A DNA stretch of 44,418 nt from a phage. Location: sequence record PX502252.1, one strand, 5' to 3'. The translations under genes were made by a program, and so were the position numbers. Under the pieces are notes generated by a model that saw only the letters and a list, made by a program, of their open reading frames with translations, did no database searches and was not told where the DNA came from. Below, piece by piece: positions 350-44,418 of this stretch. Numbering within the stretch: position 1 is the first letter of the stretch; every line of letters starts with the position of its first letter.

Positions 350-478
350 ATGCGTAACTTTGAGAAGATGACCCGTAAAGCTAATCGTTTTGACATGGAA
401 GAAGGGCAGAAGAAAGGCAAGAAGCTGAACAAACCTGTCCGCGACCGTGCATCTAAACGCGCTGCGTGGGAGTTCTAA
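350..478 (+). CDS. Small basic protein (42 aa), resembles T7 gene 1.1 product
   Basis: ATG with GGAG upstream; MRNFEKMTRKANRFDMEEGQKKGKKLNKPVRDRASKRAAWEF; N-terminus and size match my recollection of T7 gp1.1; below ORF-track size cutoff. Confidence 0.6.
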   Translation: MRNFEKMTRKANRFDMEEGQKKGKKLNKPVRDRASKRAAWEF

Positions 479-11712: not shown

Positions 11713-11795
11713 AGGGCTAGGTAAGACTTTATCGGCTGGCGTATCCAAATGATATTGCACTAGCCCTTGATTGTATAGTGAATGGAGGATTCAAT

Positions 11796-12299
11796 ATGTC
11801 ACACTATGAATGTAAGAAGTGTCATAAGCGTTATGATTACTGTACTTGTGGTCAAGAGAAAACATCTTTTAAAGTTGGAGACAAGGTAATTCGTAATGAA
11901 AAAGATTCGATTCCTTGGAATCAATACTGCAAAGAAGCTGGTATTGACCCTGATAGCCCTGTAACCATAGATGATATTGATGGCATTAACTTGTGCTTTC
12001 GTGAGGTGAGGGGTACAGGTTGGGATTCCAAAAAATTCAAACTTGCATCTGATAAGTTAGACAACAATATGGTAACTCAGCCTAAGCACTACGAGTTCTT
12101 TGATGGCGTAGAGGCAATCACTATCATTGCCCGCAGTATGACTGAAAAGCAATTCGCTGGGTACTGCATGGGTAATGCCCTTAAGTATCGCCTGCGTGCA
12201 GGTAAGAAGTTCAATACTGAAGAAGACCTGAAGAAAGCAGACTACTACAAAGAGCTATTCCAGAAGCACCGTCACGAATGTATTGATGAGGATATTTGA
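11796..12299 (+). CDS. DUF3310-like protein with N-terminal Cys-rich zinc ribbon (167 aa)
   Basis: GGAGGA 6 nt upstream of ATG 11796; CKKCHKRYDYCTC; C-terminal HYEFFDGVEAI...GNALKYRLRAGKK...EDLKKADYY resembles DUF3310 signature. Confidence 0.7.
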   Translation: MSHYECKKCHKRYDYCTCGQEKTSFKVGDKVIRNEKDSIPWNQYCKEAGIDPDSPVTIDDIDGINLCFREVRGTGWDSKKFKLASDKLDNNMVTQPKHYEFFDGVEAITIIARSMTEKQFAGYCMGNALKYRLRAGKKFNTEEDLKKADYYKELFQKHRHECIDEDI

Positions 12300-35946: not shown

Positions 35947-37605
35947 ATGCTGCAACGATTAAGTGCTTCCTTAGTGAAGTACAAGAGCAAGCTCATAGGA
36001 GCTACCTATAGGTTGCTTGGTGATAAACTTTTAGAGCTAAATAGTGTATCAGATTTTGGTGCAATACCTAATCTTGAAACAGATAGTACTAACTCCATTC
36101 AAGCTGCAATTGATGCGACCCCGTCTGGTGGTACTCTAGGCTTCTATGGTGGGCCTTATAGATTTGGTACTGTTACAGTGGATAAACCAATTACACTAGT
36201 TGGAGATGCAGATTTGCAGTTTGAGTGCATTCGTATCAAGACAAGTAAGTTTCGTAGTTTCTTGACAGGAACACTAACTGCTGCAAGATACGACAGTGCA
36301 TGTCGTGCATTTCAAATCTTAGCCTATGAAGATGGGGAAGATTATGAGGACATCAAGGTACATGGTGCACGTTTCGAGGGTTTCTTCTATAACACAGACT
36401 TCCGAGGCCGTTCTTACGATGCGTCAGAAAGTGATCCCGCTAACAGAGTGGTTCGGGATACCTCCATTATGGGTTGTACTTCAGTTCAACCTAAAGATGG
36501 TAAAGACAGAGGGCACTTTCAACACGTAGGTGTTACCAATGCCAAGTGCATAGGTAACTCAACGTATGGTGGTAAGAATGCTACTTCTTATAACTTCATT
36601 AATGGTAATGGCTCTTTGGTGGTTATTGGTAATTATGACCATGACAATGAATACGGCTCCTTAGAGATTGAGAATAACAAGATAAGCTATGGTGTGGTTA
36701 CTGGTAATATCTTCCATAAACAACTATGGATAGATGATACTAGCAATATTAATGTAATAGGTAACACCTGTACAGATAGGATTTACATTACTGCACAATC
36801 TAACAACTCTGAGAACGTATCAGTAGTGGGGAATAATGTACCACGCATCTACGTCAGTAAGTTTGGTCAAAGCCCAACAGGGCGTCACCGTAACTTGACT
36901 ATACGTGGTAATCATATCACTGGCAAGGATGTTCCTAACTGTATCTTCTTAGATGATTCTGTTGATTCCGCTTCTATTGAAGGTAATGATTGTTATGGTG
37001 TGTCTGGTGTTAAAGGCATAGCCATTACTCGTCATGCAGATGCTAACCATACAGTGCGTCATAATAACTTACATGGCACTAACTTACTCTTTAGTGGTTC
37101 GGGCGGAAAAGTTTATAGTTATGACAACTTTGATGTTGGAGTTGATGAATCCCCTGTGGCAGACAGAACTGACGCAGTGCACATTGACAACCTTCTTCGT
37201 GTAAATGATGAGTACCTTGATTTGCCAGGAAAGTACCTATACAAATCTAAGTATACAAGAGACATTACACAAGGTGGCTCAACCACTATTGAGTTACCTG
37301 TAACCACAAGTGGTTCTTTGGCTTTTCGTGGTATTAGTTTATGGGTTCTTATCCGTAACACTTCTACGGGGAACTTGTCTTCTTATCGTGTAGATGGAAG
37401 ACATGCAGTAAGTGGTTCTTCTGTGACTGTTAGCTTTGGAGAGAAGTATGGGGTATTAGGAGTGAATACTGGTGATGTTACTGTTAGTAATGATGCCTCT
37501 ACGACTACTCTTATTCGTATCAAGGTAAGCAATGAGCATGTAAGTCAGACAATGCAGGTTACAGTTGTACCAGAGGTAACAAGCAGATTAGGGACTGAAG
37601 AGTAA
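35947..37605 (+). CDS. Tailspike with pectate-lyase-like right-handed beta-helix (polysaccharide depolymerase)
   Basis: AAAGGAGGG SD; N-terminal VSDFGAIPN...TDSTNSIQAAIDATPSGGTL...TLVGD typical of beta-helix depolymerase start; repeated GN-containing rungs (VIGNYD, VIGNTC, VVGNNV, IRGNHI, IEGNDC). Confidence 0.8.
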   Translation: MLQRLSASLVKYKSKLIGATYRLLGDKLLELNSVSDFGAIPNLETDSTNSIQAAIDATPSGGTLGFYGGPYRFGTVTVDKPITLVGDADLQFECIRIKTSKFRSFLTGTLTAARYDSACRAFQILAYEDGEDYEDIKVHGARFEGFFYNTDFRGRSYDASESDPANRVVRDTSIMGCTSVQPKDGKDRGHFQHVGVTNAKCIGNSTYGGKNATSYNFINGNGSLVVIGNYDHDNEYGSLEIENNKISYGVVTGNIFHKQLWIDDTSNINVIGNTCTDRIYITAQSNNSENVSVVGNNVPRIYVSKFGQSPTGRHRNLTIRGNHITGKDVPNCIFLDDSVDSASIEGNDCYGVSGVKGIAITRHADANHTVRHNNLHGTNLLFSGSGGKVYSYDNFDVGVDESPVADRTDAVHIDNLLRVNDEYLDLPGKYLYKSKYTRDITQGGSTTIELPVTTSGSLAFRGISLWVLIRNTSTGNLSSYRVDGRHAVSGSSVTVSFGEKYGVLGVNTGDVTVSNDASTTTLIRIKVSNEHVSQTMQVTVVPEVTSRLGTEE

Positions 37606-37754
37606 TGCCATTAATCAAATCAGTTAAGCAAAGTGCTGTACGCCAGAACACAGAAGAACTTATTCAATCAGGACGTGACCCTAAGCAGGCTTATGCCATT
37701 GCCAAGGATGTACAACGTCGTGCAATGAAGAAACCTTCTGCATCTTCTGCGTAA
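37605..37754 (+). CDS. Small basic protein (49 aa), translationally coupled to tailspike
   Basis: ATG overlaps tailspike TAA (TAATG); MPLIKSVKQSAVRQNTEELIQSGRDPKQAYAIAKDVQRRAMKKPSASSA. Confidence 0.4.
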   Translation: MPLIKSVKQSAVRQNTEELIQSGRDPKQAYAIAKDVQRRAMKKPSASSA

Positions 37755-37893
37755 GCAGGTTAATATCTTAGTTTACACAAGGACAGACCTATGATAGCTC
37801 ACAGCACACCCCTGAGTGCCGCTCTGGATTCTATGAATTGTTCCCTGACTATCTAGGTTTGCTCTTAGTGTATTCCAAAGGAGGTCACATGTA

Positions 37894-38154
37894 ATGTTGG
37901 TTGTATCTAGTAAGAAGAAGCAGAGTGAAATGGATAAGATAGTTCAGACTGGCCTTGCTGCTAAGTCTGGTCAACCTCTTAATACTGGAACTGGTTCAAT
38001 TGACAAGATTGTTGAAACAGGCAAACAGGCCATGTCTGTTGGGTTGGACAAGAGTGAAAGGAAGCAGGCTGAGTTCAATAAGATCATTGAGTTCGGTAAG
38101 GAAGCTAAGAGGAAGTTCTTAAGGCCGTCTGCGGTAGAACCAGTAAGACACTAG
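37894..38154 (+). CDS. Small protein (86 aa) with three internal [DN]KI[VI][QE]xG repeats
   Basis: AAGGAGG SD; repeats DKIVQTG, DKIVETG, NKIIEFG; last gene before repeat-dense terminal region. Confidence 0.5.
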   Translation: MLVVSSKKKQSEMDKIVQTGLAAKSGQPLNTGTGSIDKIVETGKQAMSVGLDKSERKQAEFNKIIEFGKEAKRKFLRPSAVEPVRH

Positions 38155-38159
38155 GAAAC

Positions 38160-38900
38160 ATCTTAGTGTTGTACAAGGAATAACCAAAGTCAAAATTTTG
38201 ATGTAGGCGTGTGTGAGGTGTCTCGCCCTCGCCCTCGCCGGGATGTCCCCATAGGGTGGCCTGAGGGAATCCGTCTCCGACGGGCAGGGCTGATGCACTC
38301 CTTGTACTAGCTTAGTAGTACACAAGGGATGACCGTACTAGTTAGCTGGTACAGCCTAGTCTTTGCTCATGTACTAGCAAGGTGGAACGCCGGAGAACGC
38401 CTAGGACGGCCTAGGGATGGCTTAGTGGTGGACAAGGTGATTGCCTTAGTGAAGCCTCTTAGTGCATTCCTGAGGCTATTCAGGGCCATTCCTGAGCGTT
38501 TGACAGGGTGGGCGTGGGTGGGCTATCTGTTCGTTTCGTCGCTGGCGCTCCTCACTTCGTTTCGCCTAGCGCTCCACTCACAAGCCTGACGTGTACCTTA
38601 GTCACTACCTTAGGTTGTTCCTTGATGGATAGCTTAGGTTAACCTTAGTGGATTGCCTTAGTTAAAGCCTTAGTGCTTCACTTAGTATCAGCTTAGTAGT
38701 GTACCTTAGTCAGTCTTAGTGTTAGACCTTAGTGACTACATAGCTACGCTATAAGATGCAAATAGGTCGCGGTCGGTAGACCGCTAATAAGAAGTAATAG
38801 TAATAAGATGCAGTAGGAGGAACACCAGAAACCTAGTCAGCCTAGCCTATCCTAGCTCTGTATCTATTGCGTTTCCTTAGTCTCACATGTTAGACAACCT
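38160..38900. repeat. Non-coding, repeat-dense genome-terminus region (GC-rich block then array of about 11 CTTAGT/CCTTAGT units); probable site of terminal repeat/concatemer junction
   Basis: CTCGCC x3, TACTAG x3, ATTCCTGAG x2, TTCGTTTCG x2, then CTTAGT repeats every 10-14 bp (38590-38750); no SD-led ORFs; analogous to T7 terminal-repeat heptamer arrays. Confidence 0.6.
38880..38895. promoter_or_regulatory. Palindrome variant GTCTCACATGTTAGAC (site 7, one mismatch)
   Basis: 15/16 match to the recurrent palindrome. Confidence 0.5.
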
Positions 38901-38962
38901 AGGTTTATCATAGTAGTTGTGACATGTATCACATAAATAATCTATCTTAGTGAAACTTAGTG

Positions 38963-38991
38963 TTGACACAGGCAATCAACAGGTATACATT
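38963..38991 (+). promoter_or_regulatory. Candidate host sigma70 early promoter (TTGACA - 17 bp - TACATT)
   Basis: Perfect -35 hexamer, 17-bp spacer, -10 with 3/6 match; positioned at start of early region. Confidence 0.4.
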
Positions 38992-39212
38992 AGCAATCAC
39001 TGAGGCGGACCTAGCAAGCTGCCTCAGGTTATAAGCAGGAGAATTGATGCGTAAGCCGTAGCTAGCGGATGTAGTCGCATGAAGGCTTGAGTAAGGGGCC
39101 GTTTAATACCTTCTTCTTCTGGAGACAAAGCTTATAATACCGCTCTTTAACAATTTGCTTAGTGTAACCTATGTATGCCGTGGTTAATTACTTATTGAAT
39201 GAGGTATTAACT

Positions 39213-39290
39213 ATGGGTAAGTTCCTTGCTGGTTTCATCCTTGCCACTGCTATCTTTGATAATGCAGCATTGGCTCTGGGTTTGTATTAA
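39213..39290 (+). CDS. Tiny hydrophobic peptide (25 aa)
   Basis: GAGG 8 nt upstream; MGKFLAGFILATAIFDNAALALGLY. Confidence 0.3.
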   Translation: MGKFLAGFILATAIFDNAALALGLY

Positions 39291-39311
39291 TAGACACAAG
39301 AGGGATTAACT

Positions 39312-39422
39312 ATGAGTTTAGCGACAACGAGTTACGAAGAATTATATGAAACCTACTACAACGCATTGGATGAAGGAGAAGAAGCATTATCCTTTGCTGA
39401 GTTTATGGAGGCTTTATCATGA
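39312..39422 (+). CDS. Small acidic early protein (36 aa)
   Basis: AGAGGGA SD; stop overlaps next start (ATGA). Confidence 0.4.
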   Translation: MSLATTSYEELYETYYNALDEGEEALSFAEFMEALS

Positions 39423-39601
39423 TTCTGAATAACCGTGAACTATCCGTTCTCTTCACCTTGTTATGCTATCTGATATATAGAAATGAGTCACTCAGTGATG
39501 ATGAGTTGTCTTTGTATCACCGCTTTCTTAACGATGGTTGGGTGGATACATTAAACCAGAAACGTGACTTGATGAAGGAGCTAACCAATGTATCAGCATG
39601 A
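39419..39601 (+). CDS. Early hypothetical protein (60 aa)
   Basis: ATGA-coupled to upstream ORF. Confidence 0.5.
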   Translation: MILNNRELSVLFTLLCYLIYRNESLSDDELSLYHRFLNDGWVDTLNQKRDLMKELTNVSA

Positions 39602-39812
39602 AGTTTTCTTTGAATCAGCCAGCGAAGCTATTCGCTTCTTTGAGGACATGCTGCGAAATGGTGTAGGTGTGCATGTACATAGCTTTCTACTAGATTATGA
39701 CACTGAATATCACCGCGTTACCTTGGTGTCTGAGTACGACCATCAAACGATTACCGAGTATCTAGGTAGCGAAGATTATGATTACGACCAAGTAATCACA
39801 ACAAACCTATAA
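39588..39812 (+). CDS. Early acidic hypothetical protein (74 aa)
   Basis: GAAGGAG 7 nt upstream of ATG. Confidence 0.6.
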   Translation: MYQHEVFFESASEAIRFFEDMLRNGVGVHVHSFLLDYDTEYHRVTLVSEYDHQTITEYLGSEDYDYDQVITTNL

Positions 39813-39991
39813 ATTAACTATTGACAGCCACGGCATACAAGGTTACATTAAGCATCAAGACGGCGACGTCTTTAAACATCCCGCTCTTTAACAATTTGGA
39901 TAGTCGCTTCTTAGTCTGGATAGGTTAAACCTAGGAGATTCTCTTGAGTCTCCTATAATGTAACCTAACTAACTAAATGAGGATTAATAAC

Positions 39992-40345
39992 ATGGCTATG
40001 TCTAATATGACTTACTCTCAGGTTTACAACACCGCTCACGCTGCATTAGTTGAACGTATCTGGGATGATGCTATTGATTGTATTGATAACGCACATGATG
40101 CAATCCATGAGGCGGCGGATAGGGCTGTACCAATCTATTATGCTGACATCTTCTCGGTGATGGCGAGTGAAGGCATTGATCATTTCTTCGAAGACTCCGG
40201 CCTGATGCCAGACGCTAAGGATGTAACGGTAGTATTGCAAGCCCGTATCTATGAGCAACTCACAATTGATCTGTGGGAACGTGTTCAGGATATGATTGAT
40301 GCATACATCGACTCCGCCGAAGATTTAGAAGAAGAGGAAGAATAA
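39992..40345 (+). CDS. ocr: Ocr-like DNA-mimic anti-restriction protein (T7 gene 0.3 homologue)
   Basis: 117 aa starting MAMSNMTY; shares HDAIH...[33 protein letters not shown]...[15 protein letters not shown] and acidic C-terminus with T7 Ocr as I recall it. Confidence 0.75.
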
Positions 40346-40346
40346 G

Positions 40347-40460
40347 ATGGAAAAACAATACAATTTCATCTTTTCAGACGGTGTGACCTTAAAATGTTCC
40401 TTGCGATTCGCACAGATTCGCGAGGAAGTGCTAGGAACTACATACAAACTATTTAGCTGA
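40347..40460 (+). CDS. Small early protein (37 aa)
   Basis: ATG 2 nt after ocr stop, GAGGAAG upstream; 3' end overlaps phage promoter. Confidence 0.35.
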   Translation: MEKQYNFIFSDGVTLKCSLRFAQIREEVLGTTYKLFS

Positions 40461-40473
40461 CACTATAAGAGAG
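40451..40473 (+). promoter_or_regulatory. SP6-type phage promoter variant (ATTTAGCTGACACTATAAGAGAG)
   Basis: Core TGACACTATA conserved; +1 region AAGAGAG shifted by one. Confidence 0.55.
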
Positions 40474-40533
40474 GGTTTAACAGGGTGCTCTTGCGAGAGT
40501 GCCCGATTAAATCAACTTAACGAGGTGTTAAAT

Positions 40534-40710
40534 ATGAAATACATACTGATTGCTATGTTTTCTGGCTTCATTGGCTATGCTGGTGCTTCTTATGACAACT
40601 ACAGAAGTAAGCAATTGGCTGCTGAAAAGTGGGATAAAACCTACTTTGCTTGTATGAAACAAGGTAATTTGATGCAAGATTGCATACTTAAAGCGCACAG
40701 CGAAGAGTGA
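40534..40710 (+). CDS. Small early protein with N-terminal hydrophobic signal/TM segment (58 aa)
   Basis: GAGG 8 nt upstream; MKYILIAMFSGFIGYAGA...; three Cys. Confidence 0.55.
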   Translation: MKYILIAMFSGFIGYAGASYDNYRSKQLAAEKWDKTYFACMKQGNLMQDCILKAHSEE

Positions 40711-40774
40711 TGAGCCTATAGCCTACTTAAGTGGGCTATGTGAACATCATTCATTAACTCAAAAGGTGACTATT

Positions 40775-41659
40775 ATGACTACTGAAAACACCCTCCTGTC
40801 TGTTCGTGAAGCTGCAACCGCTGAGATCAAGCAACACTTAGACAATATCGGCACTTCTTACATCAAAGTTGGCGCTTGTCTTAATGAGTTACGCGGTGAC
40901 TTTGAAGGTCAAAAAGACTTTTTGGCTTATGTAGAAGCAGAAATTGGAATCAAGAAAGCACAATGTTACAAGCTGATGAGTGTAGCCCGTGTCTTTGAAG
41001 GCGATGATCGCTTTAAAGGCGTGGCGATGCGTGTAATGCTGGCACTTATTCCTTTCGCTGATGAAAATATCATCATGGAGAAAGCCGCAGAACTTGCCGC
41101 AGCGGGCAAGCTGGACACTAACGCCGTGAACGCCCTGATTGAGCCTAAGAAAGAGCCAAAGTCTGAGACGGTACAACCCAAGGCTGAGCCTGTAAAACCG
41201 CAGGAGAACGCGACTGCGTCCGCAGAATCACAGGAAACGCAAGCGCCGCAGGAAGTGCCGCCAGCAAGTGAGTCTGATGACGACGAATCAGCACCGTGGG
41301 AAGAGGAAAGCAAGCCGGAAGCGCCTAAGGCCGCGCCACTGGATAACACGGCTAACACTGAGAACGCCGCCATGTCTGGCCTGCTGGCACAAATTAAGTC
41401 ACTGACTGAGCAATTACAGGCAGCTAACGACCGCATCGCCGCCCTAACCAGTGCACGCGAAAGCAAGAAAGCCGCCGCTCCTATGCTCCCGCAATTCAAA
41501 TCTTCTTGCTTTTACGCTCGCTTAGGATTGAGCGCTGAGGAGGCAACGAAGAAAACAGCGGTGAACAAGGCACGCCGCGAACTGGTTAAGCTGGGATATG
41601 GTGAAGGCCATGAGGCATGGGCTTTAATCTCTGAGGCAGTAGAAGAATTAACTAAGTAA
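40775..41659 (+). CDS. Early protein (294 aa), two domains joined by acidic P/E/A/K-rich low-complexity linker; function unknown
   Basis: Position of T7 gene 0.7 but no kinase motifs recognised; ATG 40775 preferred over GTG 40766. Confidence 0.7.
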   Translation: MTTENTLLSVREAATAEIKQHLDNIGTSYIKVGACLNELRGDFEGQKDFLAYVEAEIGIKKAQCYKLMSVARVFEGDDRFKGVAMRVMLALIPFADENIIMEKAAELAAAGKLDTNAVNALIEPKKEPKSETVQPKAEPVKPQENATASAESQETQAPQEVPPASESDDDESAPWEEESKPEAPKAAPLDNTANTENAAMSGLLAQIKSLTEQLQAANDRIAALTSARESKKAAAPMLPQFKSSCFYARLGLSAEEATKKTAVNKARRELVKLGYGEGHEAWALISEAVEELTK

Positions 41660-41722
41660 CCTTATCGGTGGCATCTTCTTAGGTGTCACCTATTAAGGTT
41701 TCTTTCACTAGGAGTAAACAAG

Positions 41723-44350
41723 ATGCAAGATTTACACGCTATCCAGCTTCAGCTTGAAGAGGAAATGTTTAACGGCGGTATTCGTCGCTTTGAAGCAGAC
41801 CAACAACGCCAGATTGCATCAGGTAATGAATCCGATACGGCATGGAATCGTCGCCTATTGTCGGAACTTATCGCACCTATGGCTGAAGGTATTCAGGCTT
41901 ATAAGGAAACCTACGAAGGCAAGAAAGGACGCGCACCGCGTGCACTGGCTTTCATTAACTGCGTAGAGAACGAAGTGGCAGCATATATCACGATGAAGAT
42001 CGTAATGGATATGCTTAACACTGATGTAACCTTGCAAGCCATAGCAATGAATGTAGCTGATCGCATCGAAGACCAAGTACGCTTCAGCAAGCTGGAAGGT
42101 CACGCCGCCAAATACTTTGAGAAAGTAAAGAAGTCGCTTAAGGCAAGTAAGACTAAATCATATCGCCATGCGCACAACGTAGCGGTGGTGGCTGAGAAGT
42201 CAGTAGCTGACCGTGACTCTGATTTCTCTCGCTGGGAAGCATGGCCTAAAGATACCTTGCTACAAATCGGTATGACCTTGCTAGAAATACTGGAGAATAG
42301 TGTATTCTTCAATGGTCATCCTGTTTTCCTCCGCACCTTGCGCACTAATGGTGGTAAGCATGGTGTTTACTACTTACAGACCAGTGAACATGTAGGGAAA
42401 TGGATTACAGCATTCAAAGAACATGTAGCGCAACTAAGCCCAGCGTATGCACCTTGCGTTATACCTCCACGTCCGTGGGTTTCTCCTTTTAATGGTGGAT
42501 TTCACACTGAGAAGGTGGCAAGCCGCATCCGTCTAGTTAAAGGAAACCGCGAGCACGTCCGCAAGTTAACCAAAAAGCAGATGCCAGCGGTTTACAAGGC
42601 TGTTAACGCTTTGCAGGAGACTAAATGGCAGGTTAATAAAGAAGTCTTGCAGGTAGTAGAAGACGTTATCCGTCTCGACCTTGGCTATGGTGTACCTTCA
42701 TTTAAACCACTCATCGACCGCGAGAATAAGCCAGCTAACCCAGTGCCGTTAGAATTCCAGCACTTGCGAGGCCGTGAGTTGAAAGAAATGTTAACGCCGG
42801 AACAATGGCAAGCCTTCATTAACTGGAAAGGTGAATGTACCAAGCTGTATACCGCAGAGACTAAGCGCGGCAGCAAGTCGGCGGCAACCGTTCGCATGGT
42901 AGGGCAGGCCCGTAAATACAGCCAGTTTGACGCTATTTATTTTGTATATGCACTGGATAGCCGTTCACGCGTTTATGCGCAATCTAGCACGCTCTCACCG
43001 CAATCAAACGACTTAGGCAAGGCGCTCCTACGGTTTACCGAAGGGCAGACTATAAACAGCGCTGAGGCGCTTAAGTGGTTTTTGGTGAACGGGGCGAATA
43101 ACTGGGGTTGGGATAAGAAAACCTTTGACGTGCGCACCGCTAACGTGTTGGATGGTGAATTCCAAGACATGTGCCGCGATATTGCAGCCGACCCGCTGAC
43201 CTTTACTCAATGGGTAAATGCTGATTCTCCTTACGGTTTCCTTGCATGGTGCTTTGAATACGCGCGTTATCTAGATGCGCTGGATGAAGGCACGCAAGAC
43301 CAATTCATGACGCACCTACCAGTACACCAAGATGGTAGCTGTTCCGGCATCCAGCACTACAGCGCTATGCTACGCGACGAAGTCGGTGCTAAGGCGGTAA
43401 ACCTTAAACCATCCAACGAGCCGCAAGACATTTATGGCGCGGTTGCTCAGGTTGTTATCCAGAAGAATTACGCCTACATGAATGCAGATGATGCGGAAAC
43501 TTTCACATCTGGAAGTGTAACCCTTACAGGTGCAGAACTGCGCAGCATGGCTAACGCGTGGGATATGATTGGGATCACTCGCGGCCTGACCAAGAAACCC
43601 GTTATGACCCTGCCATACGGCTCCACACGCTTAACCTGCCGTGAATCGGTGATTGATTATATCGTTGATTTGGAAGAAAAAGAGGCACAACGAGCTATCG
43701 CCGAAGGGCGGACGGCGAATCCTGTGCACCCTTTTGATAATGACCGTAAAGACTACCTGACACCGGGCGCGGCATATAACTATATGACTGCTCTCATCTG
43801 GCCTTCCATCTCTGAGGTTGTGAAAGCTCCGATAGTTGCCATGAAAATGATTCGCCAGCTTGCACGTTTCGCAGCTAAGAGGAACGAAGGATTAGAATAC
43901 CCCTTACCGACTGGCTTCATCTTGCAACAAAAGATAATGGCAACCGATATGCTTCGCGTATCCACTTGCTTGATGGGTGAAATCAAGATGAGTCTCCAGA
44001 TTGAAACAGATGTAGTTGATGAAACGGCAATGATGGGTGCGGCTGCTCCTAACTTCGTGCACGGTCATGATGCTAGCCACCTGATTCTGACTGTATGTGA
44101 CCTAGTGGATAAAGGTATTACATCCATTGCAGTCATCCATGATTCTTTCGGCACTCATGCAGGACGTACCGCAGACCTGCGGGATAGCTTAAGGGCAGAA
44201 ATGGTTAAGATGTATCAAGACCATAATGCCTTGCAAAACCTGCTGGATGTGCACGAAGAACGTTGGTTAGTAGATACCGGAATCCAAGTACCAGAGCAAG
44301 GAGAGTTTGACCTTAACGAAATCTTAGTATCTGACTATTGCTTCGCATAA
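41723..44350 (+). CDS. Single-subunit DNA-directed RNA polymerase, SP6-type
   Basis: 875 aa; N-terminus [32 protein letters not shown] and long stretches match SP6 RNAP as I recall it; motifs [14 protein letters not shown] and VHDSFGTH; cognate promoters throughout genome. Confidence 0.97.
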
Positions 44351-44357
44351 TATTGAT

Positions 44358-44389
44358 AGGCCATTCCTTCGGGAGTGGCCTTTTCTTTT
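44358..44389 (+). terminator. Hairpin terminator immediately downstream of RNAP stop
   Basis: AGGCCATTCC-TTCG-GGAGTGGCCT followed by TTTTCTTTT; same as 31-62. Confidence 0.65.
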
Positions 44390-44418
44390 ACCTACTACCT
44401 GTAACATTTCATTAACAT

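Follow-up and report, generated by a model that had tools for sequence, protein, structure and literature searches.

An Ocr-family DNA-mimic gene in the early region of a Vectrevirus phage genome

A short reading frame in the early region of an SP6-type phage genome raises the question of whether its product is a genuine counterpart of the T7 protein Ocr (gp0.3), what such a protein would do in this phage and whether its presence makes the genome unusual. Ocr is small, all-helical and highly acidic, and the carboxylates on the surface of its dimer mimic the phosphate backbone of bent B-form DNA. The family fold is all-alpha, and the curved dimer mimics about 24 bp of bent B-DNA. T7 Ocr inhibits type I restriction-modification (R-M) and BREX systems (PMC12455610, PMC11464382, PMC9122126). 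Herein, the whole 44,418-nucleotide stretch of sequence record PX502252.1, referred to as the window, was analyzed. We conclude that the frame very probably encodes a functional Ocr that blocks type I R-M and BREX, read as an early, host-transcribed gene near the genome end that enters first.

The window is a complete, circularly permuted genome of a Vectrevirus (K1E/K1-5-like; Molineuxvirinae, SP6 group; Autographiviridae). Its RNA polymerase, its phage promoters and its nucleotide similarity all place it there. An 8.4 kb query (window 36000–44418) gave about 88–91% nucleotide identity to Vectrevirus records. The RNA polymerase shared 98% amino acid identity with that of K1E, 86% with that of SP6 and 32–36% with that of T7, and SP6-type promoters were matched six times in the genome with 0 expected by chance. 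The SP6-type polymerase and promoters of the preliminary description were thereby borne out. Window bases 1–91 were exactly the same as bases 44328–44418, which looks like an overlap left by an assembler circularizing the contig; with this overlap counted once, 44,327 bp of unique sequence remain. Owing to the permutation of the record, the early region comes last in the window. By homology to where the SP6 and K1E records begin, the physical left end is placed near window position 38221, and ocr lies 1772–2125 nt from this inferred end. The features discussed below are collected in Table 1.

Table 1. Features of the window in order of position, followed by core genes compared with T7
Feature	Position	Strand	Amino acid identity to T7	Basis or remark
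T7 gene 1.1 homologue, 42 aa	350..478	+		just 3' of the polymerase gene with the window ends joined
Sigma-70-like early promoter (TTGACA, 17 nt, TACATT)	38963..38991	+		10/12 positions match
boxA-like 12-mer GCTCTTTAACAA, first copy	39142..39153	+		exact
Sigma-70-like promoter (TTGACA, 17 nt, TACATT)	39821..39849	+		directly 5' of ocr
boxA-like 12-mer GCTCTTTAACAA, second copy	39883..39894	+		exact, in ocr leader
Long irregular leader hairpin	39901..39986	+		3' end over Shine-Dalgarno
ocr gene, 117-aa Ocr-family DNA-mimic anti-restriction protein	39992..40345	+		PDB, Pfam and PHROG matches
37-aa ORF	40347..40460	+		K1E gene 4 homologue; phrog_11746, E 4.7e-30
First SP6-type phage promoter from left end (ATTTAGCTGACACTATAAGAGAG)	40451..40473	+		downstream of ocr
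Early protein, 297 aa	40766..41659	+		phrog_4571; homologue of SP6 gp7 and K1E gp6
SP6-type single-subunit RNA polymerase, 875 aa	41723..44350	+	32%	amino acid identity to SP6/K1E; window-T7 comparison
Primase-helicase			25%	window-T7 comparison
DNA polymerase			36%	window-T7 comparison
Portal			33%	window-T7 comparison
gp12			28%	window-T7 comparison
Terminase			36%	window-T7 comparison

The ocr frame is intact over 117 codons on the plus strand, from the ATG at 39992 to the TAA at 40343–40345, and its product begins with MAMSNMTY and carries the acidic C-terminal tail EDLEEEEE. The coordinates, length, first residues and acidic tail given in the preliminary description were exact. A GAGGA Shine-Dalgarno sequence at 39979–39983 lies 8 nt 5' of the start codon. 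An alternative in-frame ATG at 39977 would yield a 122-aa Ocr and is the start chosen in the vB_Ec-G9 record. Because this ATG overlaps the GAGGA sequence and is without a Shine-Dalgarno sequence of its own, the start at 39992 is preferable, and it agrees with the T7 start. On the minus strand, the frames 40046..40258 and 40260..40358 overlap ocr and each start with TTG; they were unsupported and were set aside.

Database comparisons identify the product as a genuine relative of T7 Ocr and a DNA mimic of the Ocr family. In a phmmer search against all PDB chains, T7 Ocr (1s7z) was matched with an E value of 1.7e-41, residues 1–117 aligning to residues 1–117 without a gap, and nine more PDB entries, including 6r9b and 6r9g, carry the 1s7z sequence. 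The Pfam profile PF08684 ("DNA mimic ocr") was matched over positions 1–100 of its 101 with 142.8 bits, the cut-off being 25, and PHROG 2568 ("ocr-like anti-restriction") was matched with an E value of 1.2e-47. Over the full length, 76 of 117 residues (about 65%) were identical to T7 gp0.3. The strong similarity to T7 Ocr claimed from the sequence was thus substantiated, and the objection of low identity, for which an alignment to T7 gp0.3 had been proposed as the check, fails. Conservation differed by segment. The first eight residues were all identical, as the preliminary description had it; residues 9–45 shared 46% identity; residues 46–96, the core, shared 86%; and residues 97–117 shared 33%. 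The acidic tail likened to that of T7 Ocr is present, though the segment that holds it has diverged.

The protein is small and strongly acidic, with 28 D/E against 5 K/R residues and a net charge of about -23. T7 Ocr has the same length of 117 aa, and with 34 D/E and 6 K/R residues its net charge is about -28, so the window protein has six acidic residues fewer. Acidic residues are retained at 24 of the 34 acidic positions of T7 Ocr. Residues F54, A58 and W95 of T7 Ocr are also kept, and F54 and A58 are invariant across the window, T7, SP6, K1E and G9 proteins. A58 has a role at the dimer interface, as the F53D/A57E monomer mutant (mature numbering) indicates; a literature search on Ocr F53D returned unrelated papers only. 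The F54A substitution in Ocr abolishes dimerization, which full inhibition requires, and F54 is also the residue altered in PARIS escape mutants (PMC9122126). A single-sequence AlphaFold2 model of the window protein was all-helical at low confidence (pLDDT 60.2, pTM 0.36). Family membership is settled by the 65% gapless identity to a crystal structure, and the same identity to 1s7z predicts the Ocr fold for the window protein.

The surroundings of ocr resemble those of T7 gene 0.3 in several respects, with host-type promoters, a boxA-like motif, a leader hairpin and a small ORF right after the stop codon. Some 0.7 kb inside the inferred left end, three sigma-70-like promoters are clustered at 38882–38991; the strongest of them is that at 38963–38991, and a further one precedes ocr directly. 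In a scan of the early region, the total number of sigma-70-like sites was not above that of a shuffled control, so the assignment of these promoters rests on their position and on the analogy to T7 A1–A3. Each of the two best promoters has an exact copy of GCTCTTTAACAA downstream, on the plus strand of the early region, and no other exact copy occurs in the 44 kb window. The motif is also found upstream of T7 gene 0.3, and the SP6 copy has one mismatch. It matches the rrn boxA antitermination consensus. Its recurrence suggests a Nus-dependent antitermination of early transcripts that would be conserved in the T7 and SP6 groups.

Between the second boxA-like copy and the start codon, the ocr leader can form a hairpin with a minimum free energy of -40 kcal/mol (z -3.9). 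Comparable hairpins were obtained for the T7 and SP6 ocr leaders (z -2.5 and -4.5, respectively). The T7 leader contains the R0.3 RNase III processing site, and the window hairpin occupies the same position; cleavage of the window hairpin by RNase III would be expected by analogy. An Rfam scan of 38000–41800 at E <= 1 gave no match, and the hairpin and the boxA-like motif thus lie outside the curated RNA families.

The ATG of the 37-aa ORF begins 1 nt past the ocr stop (TAAGATG). This ORF was rejected as a counterpart of T7 gp0.4, tblastn giving no match at E <= 0.01. The first phage promoter from the left end lies downstream of ocr, and ocr is therefore upstream of all phage promoters, in a class I position as in T7. 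By position, 1.77 kb from the left end with sigma-70-like promoters upstream, ocr appears to be a host-transcribed early gene, as gene 0.3 is in T7. The arrangement also departs from that of T7, where gene 0.3 comes first, whereas three to four small ORFs stand between the left end and ocr in the window; the small ORF after ocr is unrelated to T7 gp0.4, and the backbone is SP6-type. In the interval from ocr to the RNA polymerase gene, a conserved 297-aa protein is encoded; its middle part is acidic, rich in proline and of low complexity, and it shares 68% identity with the SP6 homologue. A series of short repeats of the CTTAGT/CCTTAG type was observed at 38560–38760, a little way in from the left end ("accttagtcactaccttaggttg...ccttagtg..."). 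These repeats resemble the repeated CCTAAAG-type elements found close to the left end of T7, and they may be concatemer-junction or packaging signals.

Based on these comparisons, a mechanism can be proposed for the window protein. Its dimer would display a DNA-like array of carboxylates and would fill the groove in which type I R-M enzymes, and likewise the BREX methyltransferase PglX/BrxX, bind DNA, leaving the incoming genome neither restricted nor modified. With ocr near the end that would enter first, host RNA polymerase would read it from the sigma-70-type promoters, the transcript would pass the boxA-like motif and the leader hairpin resembling an RNase III site, and the inhibitor would be made ahead of the entry of type I target sites. 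Activity against type I R-M is predicted from the sequence, and activity against BREX is probable on the same footing. Dimerization, targets and timing of expression we infer from T7 Ocr and from gene position, and DNA entry driven by transcription is assumed. Our search of the literature found no experiment on any SP6-group Ocr.

The distribution of target sequences was compared with this scheme. The genome holds 9 EcoKI, 6 EcoBI, 6 EcoAI and 3 EcoR124I target sequences. Up to 6.7 kb from the inferred left end, none of these 24 was present against about 3.6 expected, a gap that fits the T7 logic of inhibitor before targets but is only suggestive of it. The sequence GGTAAG, the E. coli HS BREX motif, occurs in 39 copies, the first of them 996 nt from the inferred left end. 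With six acidic residues fewer and with residues 9–45 and 97–117 diverged, the window protein could differ from T7 Ocr in its range of targets.

The main role of Ocr might instead be host transcription shut-off, the DNA mimic acting on E. coli RNA polymerase and blocking sigma factor recruitment. A phage with its own polymerase would gain from such a shut-off, and two of the structures that share the T7 Ocr sequence, 6r9b and 6r9g, are RNA polymerase-Ocr complexes. Passages in PMC12455610 and PMC13005862 also credit Ye et al. 2020 with transcription inhibition by Ocr. However, the phenotype of T7 gene 0.3 mutants is sensitivity to restriction (PMC9122126), and we regard shut-off as unlikely to be the main role. 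Inhibition of RNA polymerase is best seen as an additional rather than an alternative activity of Ocr; the window protein may bind the host RNA polymerase and may also trigger PARIS, in addition to the type I R-M and BREX inhibition that we favor.

The presence of ocr in this phage group is already known, and the gene is routinely annotated. The allele of the window is held by 46 phage records of 43.7–45.9 kb each, at 87.5–97.3% amino acid identity, many of them labeled Ocr. Among Vectrevirus phages, vB_Ec-G9 (XKC20103.1), VEc3, AAPEc6, ACG-C91 and a K1E isolate (KY435490) have the same allele at the same locus with the same flanks, and the labels in such records often read "protein Ocr" or "ocr-like anti-restriction". 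The closest relative differs from the window protein at 3 of 117 residues and has an acidic tail one residue longer. Neither the 117-aa nor the 122-aa form was found by exact look-up in a collection of 15 billion proteins. In RefSeq, SP6 gp5 (NP_853565.1) is named "ocr-like anti-restriction" and SP6 gp9 is also named "gp1.1", and K1E gene 3 (YP_424972.1) carries an ocr-like label and the remark "inhibitor of host endonucleases". SP6 gp5 and K1E gp3 belong to the same family and fill the same slot, after the small early ORFs and ahead of the RNA polymerase gene. Their alleles differ from that of the window: identity to the window protein is 61% for SP6 gp5, which reaches 77% to T7 Ocr, and 46–47% for K1E gp3, of 108 aa. 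"DNA mimic Ocr" and "bacteriophage 1.1 protein" appear in the gene lists of K1-specific SP6-like phages (PMC5582158), and a T7-like Ocr has been described as conserved among Vectrevirus phages (PMC13005862; bioRxiv 10.1101/2024.01.12.575291); the main text of the BASEL paper holds no mention of Ocr or Vectrevirus. Because the gene is present and annotated at the same place in SP6 and in dozens of K1E-like phages, the window ocr is ordinary.

Ocr is accompanied by other T7-like accessory genes. The product of 350..478 is a basic protein of the T7 gp1.1 family (PHROG 2490), 56% identical to T7 gp1.1 (E 4.9e-9), 100% to K1E gp8 and 78% to the C-terminal part of SP6 gp9, and the T7-like gene 1.1 of the preliminary description is therefore real. 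In the 173-aa ORF at 11778..12299 (plus strand), the C-terminal ~70 residues (window 12072–12281) were observed to match residues 122–194 of T7 gp1.7. This C-terminal region of 73 aa is 64% identical to T7, far above the 25–36% of the core genes in Table 1, and on that identity it is a further T7-like accessory module. That such a T7 flavor is unusual for an SP6-type genome is not supported, since both genes occupy the same loci in SP6 (gp5, gp9) and in K1E. The suggestion of mosaic ancestry stood in part: Ocr, gp1.1 and the gp1.7 region share 56–66% identity with T7, Ocr standing at 66% in this comparison, against 25–36% for core proteins, but the exchange behind this is ancient and group-wide.

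Comparisons across the group point to the same conclusion. Between T7 and SP6, ocr products are 77% identical with dS at 0.95, whereas the polymerases are 35% identical with dS saturated. Between the window and K1E the relation is reversed, with Ocr about 47% identical and the polymerases 98% identical (dS 0.66), and in DNA the ocr segment is 70.7% identical against 85–89% for its flanks. K1E-type Ocr is 77–84% identical to the Ocr of genomes of about 38–41 kb, one of them recorded under the name Kayfunavirus, and the nearest relatives of the window-type Ocr beyond the genus are T7-group phages at 63–71% identity. One genus thus holds two very different ocr alleles, seen in K1E NC_007637 (2346–2672) and in the window, and in another K1E-named record (KY435490) the allele is of the window type, at 97% identity. 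From gene 2 to ocr, K1E has two additional small genes, 2.5 and 2.8. By these identities, ocr alleles are discordant with the genome backbone and have been swapped within the genus. Judged likewise, the ocr locus has been exchanged repeatedly between two Autographiviridae subfamilies, which is a property of the group and not of this genome. That the SP6-like locus is a hot-spot of swaps with T7-like phages, the window allele having been selected for other targets or sensors, seems doubtful to us. On that doubtful reading, recognition of the window-type Ocr by abortive-infection systems that sense Ocr, for example PARIS, might be altered, with inhibition of type I R-M and BREX retained.

Substitution patterns bear on both the condition and the age of the gene. 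Over ocr codons, the window and T7 gave a pS of 0.75 (saturated), a dN of 0.28 and a third-position identity of 0.49. This synonymous saturation therefore speaks for an old divergence under purifying selection and against a recent capture. The dN/dS of ocr was 0.02–0.07, with 0.02 against vB_Ec-G9 at a dS of 0.48. A decaying or inactive relic, no longer inhibiting defense systems, might explain the six missing acidic residues and the N-terminal and C-terminal thirds diverged from T7 Ocr; however, the ORF is intact with a good Shine-Dalgarno sequence, the purifying selection is strong, the core and the dimerization residue F54 are conserved, and K1E Ocr has a similar charge (net -22), all of which makes decay highly improbable. 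That ocr was captured recently from a T7-like phage, making this genome an unusual SP6/T7 mosaic, is scarcely credible: the excess of identity to T7 over core proteins in Ocr, gp1.1 and the gp1.7 region speaks for it, but SP6 and K1E show the two genes ocr and 1.1 in matching places, relatives beyond the genus come no closer than the identities given above, and the strong form of such a capture is refuted by the saturated synonymous sites and the 46 genomes with the allele.

Herein, our findings point to a predicted inhibitor of type I R-M and BREX in this phage, as in those of its relatives that serve in phage-therapy work on K1 and UPEC. The phage should accordingly plate on hosts relying on these systems, and vulnerability to PARIS is possible. 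The practical value of this knowledge is small. For the family, the discordance of ocr with the genome backbone shows counter-defense cassettes moving between Autographiviridae subfamilies with common hosts.
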